A stretch of DNA of 64,000 nucleotides from positions 7,929 to 71,928 of IMG/VR virus record IMGVR_UViG_3300038321_000157, one strand, 5' to 3'. The notes under the pieces are model-generated. The model ran no database searches. It was given only the letters and a program-made list of their open reading frames with translations, and was not told where the DNA came from. Made by a program: the position numbers and the translations under genes. This DNA comes from a virus. Below are positions 221 to 7,837 of this stretch, piece by piece. Numbering within the stretch: the first letter of the stretch is position 1; each line of letters begins with the position of its first letter.

Positions 221-589
221 ATGTGTATGGCAACAATATTATCATTTAACTTACTTGAAACAGTGACTACAATAAGAAAAACAAGTAAAGATTTAAACGA
301 ACAATTATCTACCATAGATAAAACTATTTGTGATTTAGAACACGAAATTATGCTTAATAAATTTGATGTATGCAGAGGATATAAGAAATTCAAACAGCTT
401 CAAGATGCTCTGATAGAAAGACGTCAGATCAAAGACGAATGGGAGTTAATTCAACCTTTAATTGCTTATACTGGAACTATAGAAAAGAAAGTAAATGAAT
501 TACATAATACAATTAATGAAAGAGAAAGTAAATATGAGAATAGAAAATATACACCAAGAGTTTTGAAAGGAGAATTAAATGCTAGTTGA
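221..589 (+). CDS. Hypothetical coiled-coil protein
   Basis: ORF track 206..589; start moved to ATG 221 after GGAGGT at 208-213. Confidence 0.7.
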   Translation: MCMATILSFNLLETVTTIRKTSKDLNEQLSTIDKTICDLEHEIMLNKFDVCRGYKKFKQLQDALIERRQIKDEWELIQPLIAYTGTIEKKVNELHNTINERESKYENRKYTPRVLKGELNAS

Positions 590-1185
590 TTGAAACCTGG
601 ATTTTAGTATTTTTATATAGTTGGAAGAAAAAATTAAACATTAAATTAATCTTTTATGATTGGCCTATATATTTCCCGCTGATTTGTTTAATAGGATACA
701 TAGTTTTTGAAGTAATGATATTTAATGACCAATACTGGATTACACAATATGGAACTATTATTAAACCAGTAACTTTGCTTAGTTATTTTGGATTGATGTA
801 CAAATATAATCTTTATTATTCGCAGAATAAAAGTAAAAGTGAATTAGTAAGGTTTTTAATTTCTCCTTTTATAATAGGAATTATTTTCTTGGTTTTAGGT
901 TACATTTTCAACGGAATAGCGATTTTAAGCAACAATGGCCACATGCCGGTATTTCCCTCTTATACATATTTTACAAATTATACGGATATATCTAGTTTTA
1001 CTGAAGATAGTTTTTATATCTTAGGGGATCATACAAGTAAAGCGATTTGGGCTTGCGATTGTATAGACATTTTTTATTCCAATTTAAGTTTGGGTGATGT
1101 ATTCGTAAGAATATATGTTGCAATTTTGATTTATTTTTCGATAAAAAGAGTGAACGAAAAACATAAAATAAATATAAATGTGTAG
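586..1185 (+). CDS. DUF5317-like membrane protein
   Basis: Several hydrophobic segments; 'NGIAILSNNGHMPV' and 'LSLGDVFV' match the family pattern as recalled. Confidence 0.65.
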   Translation: MIETWILVFLYSWKKKLNIKLIFYDWPIYFPLICLIGYIVFEVMIFNDQYWITQYGTIIKPVTLLSYFGLMYKYNLYYSQNKSKSELVRFLISPFIIGIIFLVLGYIFNGIAILSNNGHMPVFPSYTYFTNYTDISSFTEDSFYILGDHTSKAIWACDCIDIFYSNLSLGDVFVRIYVAILIYFSIKRVNEKHKININV

Positions 1186-1205
1186 ACAAACAGCAATAAT
1201 TCTGC

Positions 1206-1235
1206 TAATATGTAATTAGAAAATATTACATATTA
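1206..1235. promoter_or_regulatory. Perfect 11-bp inverted repeat directly before the RBS of the receptor-agrD operon (candidate operator or hairpin)
   Basis: TAATATGTAAT (1206-1216), 8-nt spacer, ATTACATATTA (1225-1235); RBS AAGGAG follows at once. Confidence 0.5.
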
Positions 1236-1250
1236 AGGAGTTGTTGGGAA

Positions 1251-2051
1251 ATGCATAGTGATATATTTAATGCAGTAATGAATACCATATTCGTAAGTAT
1301 TCCAGAAAGTGTTTTATGGATTTTATTCGTATTTTTTCTCATGAAACGGAATGATTTATTGGATGTTTATAGATGGCAATATAATTTGAAACAAATTATG
1401 ATTGCGGCAATTCCAGTATCTATAAGTATAAATGTAATGAGATATATTCTACACGTAAATAATTTAATAAATTTTATTATTATAGAAATAATGATGATTA
1501 TATTAATTGTTTACATAATTAAAAAAAATAATTTTTTAAATGAAAAGATTAGTTATTTAAAAATAGTAATTTATGTAATGCTTGCGGATTTTATTATGAT
1601 TTTTACCACAGAAGGATTATTAGGTTTAATTATAATTCAAATGTTGCATATGAGTATAGATGTAATTAATAATAATATTGGATTAAATATAACTTTATCA
1701 CTTATACCAAGGACGGTACAAATTTTATTAATTAGTTTATGTATATATAAACAAAACGTTGGTAAAATGATTAATTATGTTGAATTAATTTTAAGAAATA
1801 AGATATTGTCAATATCAATGAGTGTGTTTTTAATAACAGTGATAATATCAAATTTTATTTTGCAAAGATTTGTTATGGCAACAAATTATTTAGATCATTA
1901 TATTATGTCAATTAAAATTGCTCTAATAGTATTAATGATAATAATCCCAATAATTATGATCGGGAGTTATATTTTTTCGATCTATAATCTTTTGTGGATT
2001 AATATAAAAACACAAAAAGAGAAAGATAATATGTTGAATGACATATATTAA
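1251..2051 (+). CDS. Polytopic membrane protein (about 7 TM) resembling an AgrC-type sensor domain, with no kinase domain
   Basis: 266 aa, hydrophobic almost throughout; no H-box or N/G1/G2 boxes; stop codon abuts the agrD RBS. Confidence 0.55.
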   Translation: MHSDIFNAVMNTIFVSIPESVLWILFVFFLMKRNDLLDVYRWQYNLKQIMIAAIPVSISINVMRYILHVNNLINFIIIEIMMIILIVYIIKKNNFLNEKISYLKIVIYVMLADFIMIFTTEGLLGLIIIQMLHMSIDVINNNIGLNITLSLIPRTVQILLISLCIYKQNVGKMINYVELILRNKILSISMSVFLITVIISNFILQRFVMATNYLDHYIMSIKIALIVLMIIIPIIMIGSYIFSIYNLLWINIKTQKEKDNMLNDIY

Positions 2052-2064
2052 AGGAGGTGAAATT

Positions 2065-2184
2065 TTGAAAAAATATCGTTTAATTGCAGGTTTAATAGGC
2101 ATCATAGCTATTGTTGGTGCTGGCATGGTGGCATCTCATACCCTATTCAACGAACCCCGCATCCCCTCCATGCTTTCTAAGTAA
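2065..2184 (+). CDS. agrD: AgrD-like cyclic lactone autoinducer propeptide MKKYRLIAGLIGIIAIVGAGMVASHTLFNEPRIPSMLSK (39 aa; not in ORF track)
   Basis: RBS AAGGAGGTGA then TTG; basic/hydrophobic leader, S-x-x-L-F core, x-E-P-x-x-P-x-x-L tail as in clostridial AgrD; AgrB lies 1.4 kb downstream. Confidence 0.85.
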   Translation: MKKYRLIAGLIGIIAIVGAGMVASHTLFNEPRIPSMLSK

Positions 2185-2210
2185 TTAAAATACCCTATCA
2201 ATACTCTAAA

Positions 2211-2248
2211 TTCTGTGCAGATTAATTTTTTAACTCTTCTGCACAGAA
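2211..2248 (+). terminator. 11-bp stem-loop after agrD (likely terminator)
   Basis: TTCTGTGCAGA (2211-2221) / TCTGCACAGAA (2238-2248). Confidence 0.55.
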
Positions 2249-2278
2249 TAATAATATAAAAATATCACCAAAAAACTA

Positions 2279-2307
2279 TTGCAATATTTTCCAGTAAATG
2301 ATACAAT
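2279..2307 (+). promoter_or_regulatory. Sigma-A-type promoter for the mazF-fusion/agrB operon
   Basis: TTGCAA-17 nt-TACAAT with extended TG. Confidence 0.7.
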
Positions 2308-2345
2308 GAAAATGTAAAATAAATAATATAGAAGGAGTGATTTAA

Positions 2346-3230
2346 ATGACAATGGCAATGAATATTTTGAATGAAGTGGAATTTAAAAAGAATATGGAAA
2401 ATGCAAAAACAGAATTATCAATTGCGCTAAAAATAGCAATTGGTCATCGTTCTGTTTCTCAGTTTGCAAGAGATTGTAGAATAGTAGATGTAACATTAAT
2501 CAATGATATTTTAAAAAGAAAGATTAATGTGTTACCTGAAAGAGATTTTTTAAGAATTGTTGAAAGAACCAGTGAAGGAAGGGTAACTTATACATATCTA
2601 TGTGAGATATGTGGTTACACCAAATGTGATCCTAATGAAGATAGGAGTTGGGCAAATTATCATCCAGAGCGTGGAAGTATTTATATGGCTGATTTAGGAT
2701 TGAATAACATGGATTCTGAACAAGAAGGGGTTAGACCTTGCCTTATTATTTCAAATAACATGGGGAATAAACATAGTAGTATAATAACAATTGCACCATT
2801 AACTTCAAAAAGGAAACATAGGTTGCCTGTCCATGTTGATTTAACAGTTCAGGATGGTATGAGACAGAATTCCATTATATGTTTAGAGCAGACTAGAGTG
2901 GTTTCTAAACGTAGGTTATTTTACAATGGTACACCCATGAAGATATTGAAATTAACTGAAGAAAAAATAAATGAAGTTAATATAGCTATTGAAAAGCAAT
3001 TCGGGATTATTGATTTAATGTATAATCCAGATCATGCATTTGAATTGGTAGGACAGATCGAAACACTTGAACATAATATAAAAACGAAAAAAATTAAACC
3101 TTCCTTCTTATCTGAATTGCTTAATGGTAAACGTAAGGAATTAGTTACGTATTGTAAGAAATATAATAGGAACGAAAAGACGATTATTAATAATTACACA
3201 GGGACAAGAGATTTTGTGCCTGTAAATTAG
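2346..3230 (+). CDS. mazF: N-terminal HTH-like domain fused to a PemK/MazF endoribonuclease, with a C-terminal helical extension
   Basis: RGSIYMADL..SEQEGVRPCLIISNNMGN..IAPLTS..LPVHV..SIICLEQTRVVSKRRL aligns by eye with B. subtilis EndoA, catalytic Arg (VRP) and Thr (LTS) kept; N-terminal 'AIGHRSVSQFARDC' is XRE-like. Confidence 0.85.
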   Translation: MTMAMNILNEVEFKKNMENAKTELSIALKIAIGHRSVSQFARDCRIVDVTLINDILKRKINVLPERDFLRIVERTSEGRVTYTYLCEICGYTKCDPNEDRSWANYHPERGSIYMADLGLNNMDSEQEGVRPCLIISNNMGNKHSSIITIAPLTSKRKHRLPVHVDLTVQDGMRQNSIICLEQTRVVSKRRLFYNGTPMKILKLTEEKINEVNIAIEKQFGIIDLMYNPDHAFELVGQIETLEHNIKTKKIKPSFLSELLNGKRKELVTYCKKYNRNEKTIINNYTGTRDFVPVN

Positions 3231-3244
3231 GAGGTTGATAATAA

Positions 3245-3544
3245 ATGATTGATGAGTTAGAAATTAAAAGTTTTGATGCTAGGTTTGGAACCAGATCAAA
3301 AGTGTTTCAATGCACTAATACGATTGTTATAGAAACACCTTTAGACAGTTGGATTGTAAAAGTTACGAACAGACAAACCAGACCACTATGTTTATTGCAT
3401 AAGAACAAATTTGGAAGAATAAATAAATACCACATTCAATCTTGGAAGACAAAAATGTTTCATGTCTATGATTCTATTTACAAACATAAAGGGATGCATC
3501 TTGTAGGTGCACCCAATACATATAAAGGTAGTCAAATAAAATGA
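3245..3544 (+). CDS. Hypothetical protein translationally coupled to agrB
   Basis: GGAGG RBS; ATGA overlap with agrB. Confidence 0.7.
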   Translation: MIDELEIKSFDARFGTRSKVFQCTNTIVIETPLDSWIVKVTNRQTRPLCLLHKNKFGRINKYHIQSWKTKMFHVYDSIYKHKGMHLVGAPNTYKGSQIK

Positions 3545-4134
3545 AAAAATATTTTCGGTACTTATACACCTTAAAATACATTAAATTACTCGCATATATG
3601 TCAGCAAGATCATTACAATTATCACGTAACGAGTCTCATAAACACAAATATATGTATTATTATGGATTTAATATTTTATATGGAGCAATTAATAAAGGAA
3701 CACTCCTTATACTGGCAGGATTATTATTCCATGCGTTACCCCAAATCCTTGTTACTACACTTGCGTTTATGTCACTTAGGGGTTTTATAGGGGGATTACA
3801 TTTTGATTCATATACAAAATGTGCCTGGATTTCATTGTTATGTTTGGTTTCAATAGGGTTATTAGCAAAATATATTCCTTACAATAATATTATAAATTTA
3901 TGTGTGTTTATTTATCTGTTAGTTATTGCTTTCATTTATGCACCAGTTGAACATAAAAATAGACCACTAACAGATAAGAAAAAAATAACTTTTAAATATG
4001 TATCCATTGTAATAATTTTTGCACTATATAGTGCTCAGGCCATAGTTAATAACGATAATATTAGTAATTGCATCATGTACGGTGTTTTATTATCGGGCAT
4101 TATCGCATTGCCAATATTTAAGAAAGTCAAATAA
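3541..4134 (+). CDS. agrB: Accessory gene regulator B-type membrane peptidase/cyclase
   Basis: YGFNIL, LRGFIGGLH..S..KC (catalytic His and Cys), IYAPVEHKNRPL; multi-TM. Confidence 0.9.
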   Translation: MKKYFRYLYTLKYIKLLAYMSARSLQLSRNESHKHKYMYYYGFNILYGAINKGTLLILAGLLFHALPQILVTTLAFMSLRGFIGGLHFDSYTKCAWISLLCLVSIGLLAKYIPYNNIINLCVFIYLLVIAFIYAPVEHKNRPLTDKKKITFKYVSIVIIFALYSAQAIVNNDNISNCIMYGVLLSGIIALPIFKKVK

Positions 4135-4338: not shown

Positions 4339-4566
4339 ATGTCAAATTCAAATCAAATGGTATGGGTTATTCGAAATAGGGATGGGTATTTTGTTAATGC
4401 AGACTTCAGAGCGTTATTTAATGGAAGAACAACAGGATTTGTTGGATATACAAATAAGGATAGGATGCAAAAGGATTTAGATAAGTTAGGTGAATTAGGT
4501 GAAGGGTATTATAGCGAACAGGTTTGTTTGAATGAGATTCCTAAAGGGGTAAGGATATATACATAA
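4339..4566 (+). CDS. Hypothetical protein
   Basis: ORF with AGGAGG RBS. Confidence 0.65.
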   Translation: MSNSNQMVWVIRNRDGYFVNADFRALFNGRTTGFVGYTNKDRMQKDLDKLGELGEGYYSEQVCLNEIPKGVRIYT

Positions 4567-4638: not shown

Positions 4639-5379
4639 TTGGGTAGAAAAATAATAGATTTAACGGGAATGAATTTTGAGAAATTAACAGTAATAAAAAG
4701 AGCAGAAGATTATATTTCTCCAAATGGGAAAACACAAACACAATGGTTATGTGAATGTAGTTGTAAAGATAAAAATAAAATTATTGTAACAATGGGACAT
4801 TTAACTTCTGGAAAAACTAAATCATGTGGGTGTTTAAGAAAAGAAAATATGAGTAAATTATTTAAGAAATATAACACATATGATTTAACTGGAGAATATG
4901 GAGTAGGTTATACATTAAAAAATGAACCATTTTATTTTGATTTAGAAGATTATGATTTAATTAAGGATTATTGCTGGAGTTTAGATAAAAATAAATATGT
5001 TATAACAACTTTAAACAAAGAAAAAGAAAAAACTACTTTACTTATGCATCGTTTAATCACAAATTGTTCTAATGATATGGATGTAGACCATAAATTTCAT
5101 GATCATTGGGATAATAGGAAAGAGTTTTTAAGGATAGCAACAAGAAGTCAAAATGGTATGAATAGTGGTTTACAATCTAATAATACTAGTGGTGTAACAG
5201 GAGTATATTGGAACTCGAAAAATGAAAAATGGAGAGCACAAATAACAATAAATAATAATAAAATACAATTAGGGTCTTTTGATAATTTTGAAGAAGCTGT
5301 TGAAATTCGTAAACAAGCTGAAATAGAATATTTTGGTGAATATCAATATAAAAACATTAAATCATCTGGGAAAAAATAA
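4639..5379 (+). CDS. HNH-AP2 homing endonuclease with N-terminal Cys module
   Basis: DLTG..WLCECSC..SCGC; MHRLI..VDH..DNRKEFLR; AP2 signature SGVTGVYW..KWRAQI..LGSFD..EA. Confidence 0.85.
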   Translation: MGRKIIDLTGMNFEKLTVIKRAEDYISPNGKTQTQWLCECSCKDKNKIIVTMGHLTSGKTKSCGCLRKENMSKLFKKYNTYDLTGEYGVGYTLKNEPFYFDLEDYDLIKDYCWSLDKNKYVITTLNKEKEKTTLLMHRLITNCSNDMDVDHKFHDHWDNRKEFLRIATRSQNGMNSGLQSNNTSGVTGVYWNSKNEKWRAQITINNNKIQLGSFDNFEEAVEIRKQAEIEYFGEYQYKNIKSSGKK

Positions 5380-5470: not shown

Positions 5471-6799
5471 GTGTCAATAATGGTTGGAAACAAAGAAGAA
5501 CAATTAAAAAATAAACTAAAAAATGTTATCCGTGAATTTGGGTATGACAATAGTACAAAGCAGTTTGTAATGGATGAATTTAAATTACGTAATTTATCAT
5601 CCTTAAGAGCTGCTTGGGTTTTTTCTGAAAATCTTGATCTGGATACTCTAACAGAATCAGAAGATGATGCCCAATTTTTATATCTATTTTCTTTTGCTCT
5701 TAATAAAGCATTAAAAGAAAAAGATATAAATATTTTGAATGATTATCAGAGTTATTTTACCAGTGTTGAAATTAGTGAATGGGAAAATTATAAAGAAGAA
5801 AAAGAATCTGAAGATATTTTCCCTTATAATTTAAAAGATGTACAAGAAATTGTTCCTGGTCAACAATGGCAAACTAAACTTACTATACAACAATTTAATG
5901 AATTATATAATGTATTACTTTGGAATCCCAACTCACAAAGGGGATTTAAGGTAACGAAAAAAGCAATTAGAATTAATGAAAATCCTCTAAAGGTTAAAGA
6001 AATAGCAGAGAATATACTTGCAGGAACATATTATCCTGACCATATTAAAATTAATGTTGTAAAAGACGAAAATAAACCTATTTATAATCCTAAAACGAGA
6101 ATGTTAACTTTAAGGGAAGGGACAAAACTTAATATTTGGGACGGTCAACATCGAAAATCTGCAAGTGCATTAGTCTTGGTAGAAAATCCCGATATAGATT
6201 TTACATGGCCTATAGATATCACAAATCTATCAGAGATTGAAACTCACAATGCGATGGTACAAATCAACAAACAAAGTCCAATTAAACTTGATGTTATATC
6301 TACTAAAGACTATTCCAAAAATGAAAATTTAGTGCTTGATAAGATTATGGATAGTCGTGGAGATTTAGCAAGCGCAACAAAAGATACAGATGCATTTGTA
6401 AAGTCAGATCGTGCTTTAACCACAAAACCTATCCTTGCCGAAGCTATTAAAGATAATTACGATAATTTAGATTCAGCTATGCAACGTGATGAAGTTGCTA
6501 AATGGATAGTTGAGTTTACAAACTACCTCATGGGTGTCTACTCAGATGAGTTTATTGTCAATCCTTATGAAGTAAAGAAAACTTCCTATATTAATAACCT
6601 AAATATGTTCTATGGATATATTGCTCTTTCCGCAATATTGAAAGATAATAAAAATTGGAAAGAAATTCTTAAACAAAAAATTAACTCAATTGATTTTTCC
6701 GTAGACAATCCTATGTGGCGAGAAATAGGGATTATCAAAGAAAACAAAATTGGTAAACCTACAAAGAATAAACTCTATAAACTTTTTATGGAGGTGTAA
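5471..6799 (+). CDS. DGQHR (DndB-like) domain protein, SPbeta YopQ-like
   Basis: IWDGQHR motif; lies directly upstream of the MrpR-like gene as in SPbeta. Confidence 0.75.
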   Translation: MSIMVGNKEEQLKNKLKNVIREFGYDNSTKQFVMDEFKLRNLSSLRAAWVFSENLDLDTLTESEDDAQFLYLFSFALNKALKEKDINILNDYQSYFTSVEISEWENYKEEKESEDIFPYNLKDVQEIVPGQQWQTKLTIQQFNELYNVLLWNPNSQRGFKVTKKAIRINENPLKVKEIAENILAGTYYPDHIKINVVKDENKPIYNPKTRMLTLREGTKLNIWDGQHRKSASALVLVENPDIDFTWPIDITNLSEIETHNAMVQINKQSPIKLDVISTKDYSKNENLVLDKIMDSRGDLASATKDTDAFVKSDRALTTKPILAEAIKDNYDNLDSAMQRDEVAKWIVEFTNYLMGVYSDEFIVNPYEVKKTSYINNLNMFYGYIALSAILKDNKNWKEILKQKINSIDFSVDNPMWREIGIIKENKIGKPTKNKLYKLFMEV

Positions 6800-6802
6800 A
6801 TA

Positions 6803-7837
6803 TTGATGATTGAATTTCAAATTGACTCTGAAATTAAGCAAGAATATTTACAAACAAAACCAACTGCAACCGCAGAATCAGATGCTTTTATACTTCGTGA
6901 TTTTGATAATTATGAAGTACAGGTTGGTAAACAAGTTTACAATCTTAACATTTCTGAATTAAATGAAATGTTTGCTACATTGCGTAATTCTTCTAAACGC
7001 ACAGCACAAAAAAATAAATCAATATTAACCAACTACATTGATTTCTGTGTTGCAAAGAAAATTGTTCCCCATATGGAAAACAGAGCAAAATATATTGATG
7101 TTGAAAAATTTGTGTCTCGACAAGCACTATTGAACAAATTTATTTCAAAAGAAAAAGTAAGAGAATATGTAAATCTCTTATATAATTCACAAGACCAATT
7201 ACTCTTATGGTTGTTATTTATAGGAGTAAGGGGTAGAACTACTGAAGATGGCACTATGGAAGAGGTTATAAATTTAACAATAGATGATGTTAATTTTAAA
7301 GAAAATATGCTTACTCTTAGACAGAATGATGGTAAATTCCGTTTATTAGATGATGTACCTGACCACATTATAGATTTAATTAGAGAGACATACGAGCAAG
7401 AATATTATATCGAGAATAATGGTGAGATGACTAATAATCCTAGAGTGCCTAACCCTAGAAAAAGTATTATTAACAAAACTGGTGAATCAAAAACAAGAGA
7501 AACAATAGATAGATATATTTTTAGAATACCAGGAAAGAGTAAATTTGAAAAATTTAGTCCTGCTTTGCTTAACTCACGGATGATTAAAATTCAAAAGGTC
7601 GTTGACAACCGATACGTAACCTGGAGCAGTTTGTATTTTTCAGGTATGTTGCAATCGTGTATAGATATTTACAAAGAGAAGGGTGAAATCACTGATAGAG
7701 ATTTTGATAACATCTGTCTTAGATATAATTACGGAGTATCAGAAGAACCAATTGGTAAGTTAAATATTAAACAAAGTGCATATTGGTTCGTTTTAAAAGA
7801 TTTGTTTTTGCAATACAAGGAGTTACTACAATTATGA
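6803..7837 (+). CDS. MrpR/YopR-like master repressor (tyrosine-recombinase fold with degenerate catalytic motif)
   Basis: SAM-like N-terminus; 'QDQLLLWLLFIGVRG..EEVINLTIDDV' recombinase box I; box II reads 'TWSSLYFSG' with no H-x-x-R. Confidence 0.75.
   Translation: MMIEFQIDSEIKQEYLQTKPTATAESDAFILRDFDNYEVQVGKQVYNLNISELNEMFATLRNSSKRTAQKNKSILTNYIDFCVAKKIVPHMENRAKYIDVEKFVSRQALLNKFISKEKVREYVNLLYNSQDQLLLWLLFIGVRGRTTEDGTMEEVINLTIDDVNFKENMLTLRQNDGKFRLLDDVPDHIIDLIRETYEQEYYIENNGEMTNNPRVPNPRKSIINKTGESKTRETIDRYIFRIPGKSKFEKFSPALLNSRMIKIQKVVDNRYVTWSSLYFSGMLQSCIDIYKEKGEITDRDFDNICLRYNYGVSEEPIGKLNIKQSAYWFVLKDLFLQYKELLQL

Follow-up and report, generated by a model that had tools for sequence, protein, structure and literature searches.

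A candidate kinase-less agr-type peptide signalling cassette in the lysogeny-control region of an SPbeta-like Clostridium phage

Introduction

Arbitrium, the peptide communication system by which phages steer lysis-lysogeny, has so far been described in Bacillus phages, and one C. difficile phage is known to carry agr genes. Among bacterial regulators, the LytTR regulatory systems HdrRM and BrsRM of streptococci are kinase-less pairs of a membrane protein and a regulator. Here we analyse a 64,000-nucleotide stretch of viral DNA (hereafter the window), which spans bases 7929-71928 of the 139,278-bp virus record IMGVR_UViG_3300038321_000157 and carries near its start a six-gene cassette. The cassette encodes a DUF5317-family membrane protein, a second membrane protein with seven transmembrane helices (7-TM), an AgrD-type propeptide, a MazF fusion protein, a 99-amino-acid (aa) protein and AgrB (Table 1). 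An earlier interpretation made from the letters and their open reading frames (ORFs), without database searches (the sequence-only reading), had listed the same six genes, and all were recovered where it had placed them, on the plus strand. We read the cassette, with about even confidence, as agr-type peptide signalling in a kinase-less form, carried by an SPbeta-like phage within the region that controls lysis-lysogeny. A literature search found no paper on this cassette or on the family of its 7-TM protein.

Results

The cassette lies where SPbeta carries arbitrium

The virus record has a G+C content of ~26% and nearly all of its genes lie on a single strand. It encodes an SPbeta-type DNA polymerase, a ligase, a helicase/exonuclease, a tail fibre and a tyrosine integrase, and is therefore a large temperate phage. 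The sequence-only reading had assigned the DNA to a phage, which is borne out by the polymerase, tail fibre and integrase as well as by the IMG/VR virus record itself and its CheckV completeness of 100% (complete). DNA matches to the locus came from fermentation and sludge metagenomes, and one related contig had been binned with a metagenome-assembled genome (MAG) of Clostridium sp. Across the whole phage genome we found no AimR (NF038310 model) and no MazE/AbrB-type gene, and the sole PemK domain was that of the MazF fusion. The virus is an SPbeta-like temperate Clostridium phage without an arbitrium system, its likeness to SPbeta showing in a YopQ homologue and an MrpR N-terminal domain.

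Downstream of the cassette are a YopQ homologue (26% identity and 79% coverage to SPbeta yopQ, E 7e-15 in tblastn) and an MrpR/YopR-like protein, MrpR/YopR being the master repressor of SPbeta (PMC10516654). In SPbeta, aimR-aimP are followed by yopM-N-O-P and then by yopQ-yopR. The cassette, upstream of the yopQ/mrpR homologues as aimR-aimP are in SPbeta, thus sits in the slot that arbitrium fills there, and the genome lacks AimR. The domain searches of the whole 139,278-bp record gave no match to HATPase_c_5 (PF14501), HATPase_c (PF02518), Response_reg (PF00072) or LytTR (PF04397), so that the absence of a histidine kinase and of AgrA, noted for the window by the sequence-only reading, extends to the entire record. 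An AgrC/AgrA pair elsewhere in the genome, which the same reading had named as a finding that would speak against its proposal, was searched for over the full genome and none was found.

The gene linkage is conserved in related uncultured phages

Homologue searches returned 22 homologues of the 266-aa 7-TM protein and 46 of the MazF fusion. The cassette recurs in at least ten related uncultured phage contigs (designated here by L numbers) at protein identities of 25-92%, and because of this recurrence the arrangement cannot be put down to chance. In these relatives the block runs in the order DUF5317, 7-TM, small peptide, MazF fusion, 99-aa family, AgrB, small ORF, DndB-like and MrpR-like. The linkage that the sequence-only reading had suggested looking for in gene neighbourhoods is thus found in at least ten phage contigs, directly upstream of the yopQ/mrpR homologues. 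Other arrangements were seen in three contigs: in L017, AgrB-DUF5317-7TM-AgrD form a single block, after which come the MazF fusion and a homologue of the 99-aa protein that is 109 aa long; L009 has its 99-aa homologue 3' of AgrB; and in L014 the MazF fusion directly adjoins the DndB-like and MrpR-like genes, with the other five cassette genes absent. Elements of the IS200/IS605 type (TnpA/TnpB) were observed beside the cassette region in two contigs (L014:617-5071; L005:1-851), and in L014 they flank the spot of the missing DUF5317-7TM-AgrD genes. In tblastn searches of deposited complete phage genomes, neither AgrB nor the 7-TM protein was found, and a pattern scan of viral contigs gave matches for the MazF pattern and no match for that of AgrB.

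AgrD and AgrB form a credible pair

The agrD gene starts with a TTG codon at 2065, seven bases downstream of a strong Shine-Dalgarno sequence (AAAGGAGGTG). Its 39-aa product ends in A-S-H-T-L-F-N-E-P-R-I-P-S-M-L-S-K, in which a five-residue serine-lactone ring, S-H-T-L-F, is predicted to be followed by the AgrB-recognition tail N-E-P-R-I-P-S-M-L. The phage peptides (window plus ten relatives) have in common the pattern A-S-x-x-x-[LF]-[NH]-[QE]-P-[KRE]-x-P-[SD]-[MC]-[LF], with the serine invariant, and the four variable ring residues across phages read HTLF, HLLF, HAFL, HSML, HWFL, HYML, FMWL, FMGL and WVGF. A variable core joined to a constant AgrB-recognition tail is the AgrD pattern. The NCBIfam model TIGR04223 (AgrD, cut-off 19 bits) is passed by the peptide of L003 (21.2 bits) and by chromosomal peptides (22-35 bits) that are described below.

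In AgrB, the motif G-G-L-H-x6-C is kept in all phage copies, which gives a seven-residue spacing from His to Cys. The same spacing separates H77 and C84, the catalytic pair of S. aureus AgrB. On HMM and motif evidence, the phage genes make a credible AgrB/AgrD pair. Two relatives have irregular AgrB frames: an in-frame stop is present in L007 (L007:8380-9400; the near-identical copy in L008 is intact), and in L013 (L013:6780-7570) the frame has no canonical start codon and the His-Cys interval is one residue shorter. The cassette may be decaying in some lineages.

The seven-helix protein belongs to an undescribed family

The AlphaFold2 (AF2) model of the 266-aa protein (pLDDT, the predicted local distance difference test score, 70.7) has seven transmembrane helices, and the positive-inside rule points to a topology with the N-terminus out and the C-terminus in. 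The protein has no Pfam, NCBIfam or PHROG family match, and we regard its family as undescribed. An exhaustive profile search of the family gave 172 cluster representatives, which measure 240-326 aa if full length; at these lengths none carries a kinase or other output domain. HisKA_7TM, ECF-S, MreD and the membrane part of SpoIIGA were considered as identities for the 7-TM protein, and as these gave weak partial fold matches no assignment was possible. A protease of the CPBP/MroQ type was rejected, there being no Pfam hit and none of that family's His motifs. A protein language model placed a 'putative sensory transduction protein kinase' as a neighbour (0.92), which we treat as a lead only.

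DUF5317 is directly upstream of the 7-TM gene in all ten phage relatives that have the latter, while the gene preceding DUF5317 varies from phage to phage. Its conserved motifs are N-G-G-x-M-P, D-x-x-D and S-x-G-D. A literature search found no paper mentioning DUF5317, and Atlas look-ups with DUF5317 and with the 99-aa ORF gave nothing usable.

Chromosomal relatives couple the seven-helix gene to AgrD without a kinase

The more distant members of the 7-TM family are chromosomal, and were collected as a set of 25 loci (L018-L042) in GTDB genomes, including Ruminiclostridium cellobioparum, R. hungatei and many Bacillota MAGs. The family is rare, being present in 7 of 399 sampled Clostridia genomes. 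An AgrD-like ORF of the Cys or Ser type follows the 7-TM gene at ~10-70 nt on its 3' side in 22 of the 25 loci, AgrB precedes it in 11, and a convergent XRE-type regulator (117-141 aa; HTH_3 E 1e-9 to 1e-12) is downstream in 14. A kinase adjoins the 7-TM gene in none of the 25, and canonical agrB-kinase loci occur elsewhere in the same genomes. DUF5317 is missing from these 7-TM/AgrD loci and from 4 of 5 such genomes. The chromosomal 7-TM proteins also have a cytoplasmic helical tail of ~45 aa, which the phage proteins do not. Taken as a unit, [AgrB]-7TM('SIPEE')-AgrD with a convergent XRE gene makes up an undescribed Clostridia cassette in its own right (for example L027:3264-5545 and L042:3260-5538), in which the XRE partner has a conserved C-terminal motif, S-H-L-P-E-E...D-P-x-N.

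The seven-helix gene tracks the peptide ring, not the phage backbone

Identity matrices and maximum-likelihood trees give the MazF fusion, AgrB and the 99-aa protein one shared history, with the window, L003 and L004 on one side and L005, L008, L011, L012 and L013 on the other. The 7-TM tree instead unites L003 and L011, the phages with S-F-M-x-L rings (support 100/99), apart from all phages with S-H-x-x-x rings. In approximately unbiased (AU) tests, the L003+L011 clade is rejected by the MazF data (delta lnL 192, p-AU 1.8e-5) and by the AgrB data (delta lnL 51, p-AU 9e-5), and the history of DUF5317 partly tracks that of the 7-TM gene. From the discordance between the 7-TM tree and those of MazF and AgrB, it follows that DUF5317-7TM-AgrD has been swapped between phage backbones as a unit, in the manner of a pherotype. 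The coupling of the 7-TM family to AgrD genes, together with its tracking of the ring sequence, marks the protein as the dedicated partner of the AgrD peptide, a partnership shown at the level of comparative genomics. Cytoplasmic loop 1 is the best-retained part of the protein across the two 7-TM classes.

The MazF fusion and the 99-aa protein

In the 294-aa fusion (AF2 model, pLDDT 84.4), the PemK/MazF domain (PF02452) is found at residues 108-219 (E 1.6e-21). Its fold, at approximately residues 105-223, matches S. aureus MazF with Z 16.7, and over the core the identity to MazF of Bacillus and S. aureus is 34-36%. Approximately residues 12-92 fold as an XRE-type helix-turn-helix (HTH; 2ofy_B, Z 9.8, rmsd 2.6, 76/80 residues), which confirms the HTH that the sequence-only reading had placed on MazF, and the model ends in a three-helix bundle at approximately residues 223-294. 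The alignment retains counterparts of Arg25 and Thr48 of B. subtilis MazF, two catalytic residues whose roles were reportedly set out by Simanshu et al. in 2013. All homologues are 273-300 aa when full length (n = 46), and from its domains the fusion would be a natural three-domain toxin of HTH, MazF and helical bundle. PHROG 35650 ('MazF-like growth inhibitor') spans residues 125-290, that is, the MazF core plus the C-terminal bundle, so other phages have the MazF-bundle architecture without being tied to the HTH. In five relatives, a further PemK gene that stands alone (140-153 aa) was observed 2-3 kb upstream of the cassette (L005:4006-4455, L008:2871-3302, L011:3123-3545, L012:3465-3926, L013:1751-2197). 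The fusion belongs to the conserved backbone of these phages and appears to share a promoter with agrB.

The 99-aa protein matched no Pfam, NCBIfam or PHROG family. Its homologues occur in nine phage relatives, 3' of MazF in most, in none of the chromosomal loci, and not in the agr-less L014; residues W36, L50, H52, N54, H63, Q65 and H81 are invariant. The overlap of reading frames indicates that it is translationally coupled to agrB. The complex predicted for a dimer of the MazF fusion with the 99-aa protein scored 0.00, which is no verdict and is not used for or against binding. The part of an antitoxin could be played by the fused XRE domain, by the C-terminal bundle or by the 99-aa protein. 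The HTH may regulate the MazF-agrB operon and the RNase may act in lysogeny control or exclusion.

Layout of the cassette and its flanks

The hairpin that follows agrD has a folding energy of -17.6 kcal/mol (z -8.0), and none of 200 shuffles folded equally well. Hairpins of 12-18 bp with different stem sequences are at the same place in seven of eight relatives, and -35/-10 pairs comparable to that before the MazF-fusion gene can be read at the same intergenic position in L003, L004, L005, L011 and L017, although over the whole region promoter-like sites are not commoner than in shuffles. The conserved hairpin position and the comparable promoter-like pairs make the two-operon reading reasonable, in agreement with the separately promoted second operon that had been read from the letters.

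Between agrB and the yopQ homologue is a small ORF of 75 aa, without a family match in Pfam or PHROG, whose counterparts (82-107 aa) are at the same position in L003, L004, L008, L009 and L013. Small antirepressors have a role in arbitrium phages (bioRxiv 10.1101/2025.11.23.689978), and for this reason the ORF is worth attention. Two further ORFs in the window lie next to these genes. At 206-589, a 127-aa coiled-coil-like ORF overlaps the start of DUF5317, with possible translational coupling, and is not conserved at this position in relatives. At 4639-5379, downstream of the small conserved ORF and ahead of the yopQ homologue, is an HNH/AP2 homing-endonuclease-like ORF, which was seen in this phage only and is missing there in L003, L004, L008 and L013.

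Table 1 Features of the cassette and its downstream region, in window coordinates.
Feature	Position	Strand	Basis
DUF5317-family polytopic membrane protein, 199 aa, first gene of the cassette	586..1185	+	Pfam PF17248 E 4e-11
Seven-helix membrane protein, 266 aa, 'SIPEE' motif family	1251..2051	+	7 predicted transmembrane helices
AgrD-type propeptide, 39 aa	2065..2184	+	Shine-Dalgarno sequence and TTG start, serine-type AgrD motif
12-bp perfect hairpin without U-run, 3' of agrD, at the border of two gene groups	2210..2249	+	Folding
Sigma-70-type promoter-like site TTGCAA-17-TACAAT, extended TG, before the MazF-fusion gene	2279..2307	+	
XRE-HTH/MazF/three-helix-bundle fusion, 294 aa	2346..3230	+	Pfam PemK and fold
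99-aa protein, no family	3245..3544	+	Stop overlaps AgrB start
AgrB-family membrane cysteine peptidase/cyclase, 197 aa	3541..4134	+	Pfam PF04647 E 1.2e-36
Small ORF, 75 aa, between agrB and the yopQ homologue	4339..4566	+	Positional conservation; no family hit
YopQ homologue (DndB/DGQHR-like)	5471-6799	+	tblastn to SPbeta yopQ
MrpR/YopR-like repressor	6803-7837	+	MrpR_N_CB E 8e-14

Discussion

In the reading that we prefer, AgrB would, by homology, cleave the N-E-P-R-I-P-S-M-L tail from the 39-aa AgrD and close the S-H-T-L-F serine lactone, and the 7-TM protein is, as comparative genomics shows, the dedicated partner of the peptide. This partner would be either a kinase-less membrane receptor or a peptide-specific leader-peptidase/exporter; between the receptor and a maturation/export factor we see roughly even odds. 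The 'receptor candidate' of the sequence-only reading has accordingly gained its seven helices and its tie to the peptide, by AgrD linkage and by ring tracking, whereas the receptor function itself now shares its place with maturation or export on about equal terms. In phages, DUF5317 may take whichever of the two roles the 7-TM protein does not. The signal would report phage or lysogen density and bias lysogeny or prophage maintenance, as the arbitrium slot and the pherotype-like diversification suggest. In a bolder form of this reading, SPbeta-like Clostridium phages would have replaced arbitrium with a serine-lactone pheromone, a kinase-less 7-TM reader and an XRE module as output (free XRE in bacteria, HTH-MazF in phages), such that density sets lysis-lysogeny. 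We consider this form unlikely; if it were true, with the 7-TM protein reading the lactone and XRE as the output, phages would have a second communication system, of a different chemistry, and peptides would be sensed across the membrane in a new way.

Several results weigh against a signalling role for the cassette, or against a receptor within it. The family searches proposed in the sequence-only reading matched AgrB, PemK and DUF5317 in Pfam, while the window's own AgrD did not reach E 0.1 on TIGR04223, below whose threshold it falls (the L003 homologue passes), and had no Pfam, NCBIfam or PHROG match. The 7-TM model gave only uncharacterised or weak partial matches in PDB, AFDB clusters, Swiss-Prot and ESM Atlas, and in hhalign its family was not significantly similar to AgrC sensor domains or to AgrB. 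Differences between the two 7-TM classes are scattered along the entire length of the protein, with no clustering in the outward-facing loops, and the L003+L011 clade was chosen for the AU tests after the identity matrix had been inspected. Co-variation, moreover, does not prove a receptor: in S. aureus a second membrane protease, MroQ, is required for maturation of the autoinducing peptide (AIP; PMC9388083), and a peptide-specific leader peptidase of this kind would co-vary with AgrD as well. The stop in AgrB of L007 and the lost AgrB start of L013 imply that the agr system is dispensable in some relatives. No RNA runs carrying the locus were found.

The sequence-only reading had gone further than ours and made MazF the output: the 7-TM protein would sense the peptide and pass the signal to the phage HTH-MazF, whose RNase would steer lysis-lysogeny in a cyclic-peptide analogue of arbitrium. 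The evidence for it is adjacency and the operon shared with agrB, and we think it quite improbable, more so than the XRE form above. The fusion is indeed directly 3' of agrD in all ten agr-carrying relatives, in a common operon with agrB in most; its catalytic residues are intact in a phage without MazE; arbitrium in phi3T works via host MazF (PMC10769878); and cytoplasmic loop 1, the most conserved part between 7-TM classes, could be a common docking site. An XRE-HTH regulator adjoins 7-TM/AgrD in 14 of the 25 chromosomal loci and the N-domain of the fusion has an XRE fold, but that domain is not significantly similar to the XRE partner of the chromosomal loci (hhalign probability 2.4%; likewise by hmmsearch), of which the phage genome holds no homologue. 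The phage 7-TM protein, having no ~45-aa cytoplasmic tail, offers little surface for signalling, and unrelated phages, virulent ones included, commonly carry MazF-like 'growth inhibitor' genes. The claim is also weakened by L014, which keeps the fusion next to yopQ/mrpR without any agr gene, and by the MazF phylogeny, which is decoupled from that of the 7-TM/AgrD pair; this pair has passed from one phage backbone to another without regard to MazF. The same L014 arrangement would suit mere neighbourhood, in which the MazF fusion, with or without the 99-aa ORF, forms a self-contained toxin-antitoxin or exclusion module (cis-inhibited by its HTH or bundle) that by chance lies among the genes of an agr moron, and the cassette would play no part in phage decisions. 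The differing gene order in L017 and L009, the second stand-alone PemK gene of some relatives and the match of XRE-type antitoxins such as HigA to the N-domain fold (Z 6.6-6.8) agree with it, yet agrB is translationally coupled to the 99-aa ORF, behind the MazF promoter in most relatives, and the linkage is kept down to 25-32% identity (L017); this explanation we hold to be very unlikely.

The main rival, which we judge improbable but to be taken seriously, is manipulation of the host. The peptide would then be read by an AgrC-type kinase or other sensor of the host, for instance so as to change how the lysogen sporulates or metabolises, with the 7-TM protein and DUF5317 serving maturation, leader removal and export, and the phage itself sensing nothing. 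Searches for kinase, receiver and LytTR domains found no recognisable signal-transduction domain in the phage, as such a role would have it, and the genomes with the chromosomal cassette hold AgrC-type kinases elsewhere. Precedents exist in that orphan agrBD are normal in clostridia, as in C. difficile agr1 (PMC8534292), that C. perfringens agrBD is co-transcribed with two hypothetical genes (PMC2706048), that phiCDHM1 carries host-derived agr genes (PMC3901668), and that AIP maturation in S. aureus needs MroQ as a second membrane protease (PMC9388083). A peptide aimed at the host should, however, be constrained by the host, and yet the ring class differs between closely related phage backbones and is accompanied each time by a 7-TM gene that matches it, as is expected of private signal-partner pairs; the cassette is, besides, in the lysogeny-control region and not at a typical moron site.

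The cassette is thus a testable candidate for a second phage peptide language, in the arbitrium slot and with pherotype-like swapping of the peptide and its partner gene, and a new 7-TM family tied to AgrD without a kinase bears on how orphan clostridial agrBD signals are matured or sensed. It resembles canonical agr (agrBDCA of S. aureus; clostridial loci) in an AgrB peptidase with a His/Cys pair and in a short AgrD with a hydrophobic leader, the five-residue ring position and an [NH]-[QE]-P-x-x-P tail, with Ser in place of Cys as in lactone AIPs (PMC8251862). It differs in being on a phage replicon without AgrC/AgrA anywhere, in the two genes between agrD and agrB, and in the 7-TM and DUF5317 genes before agrD. 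With the agr3 locus of phiCDHM1 (agrB, agrD, agrC; PMC3901668) it has in common agr genes on a clostridial temperate phage without agrA; phiCDHM1, though, is a 54-kb myovirus with a bona fide AgrC kinase, whereas here a 139-kb SPbeta-like phage has no kinase and the genes are beside yopQ/mrpR.

Compared with MazF/PemK type II toxins (B. subtilis EndoA, S. aureus MazF), the fusion has 34-36% identity, the full fold and equivalents of the catalytic Arg/Thr, but it adds the N-terminal XRE HTH and the C-terminal three-helix bundle, has no MazE gene and is phage-encoded. The chromosomal relatives recall HdrRM and BrsRM in that, without a kinase, a polytopic membrane protein that stands alone is paired with a small, bare DNA-binding protein; they differ in that the regulator is XRE and not LytTR, in the tie to an AgrD peptide and in the phage copy being without a stand-alone regulator, and the pairing here is known from gene adjacency. 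The closest parallel in position is arbitrium (aimR-aimP-aimX of SPbeta and phi3T), with which the cassette has in common the slot upstream of yopQ-yopR, lineage-specific peptide variants and a hairpin directly after the peptide gene. A MazF connection exists in phi3T (PMC10769878); here MazF is phage-encoded and HTH-fused, and its control by the peptide is hypothetical. Where arbitrium has AimR, a cytoplasmic tetratricopeptide-repeat (TPR) receptor, and a linear hexapeptide, the present phage has no AimR, a candidate sensor in the membrane and a peptide that is predicted to be cyclic and processed by AgrB.

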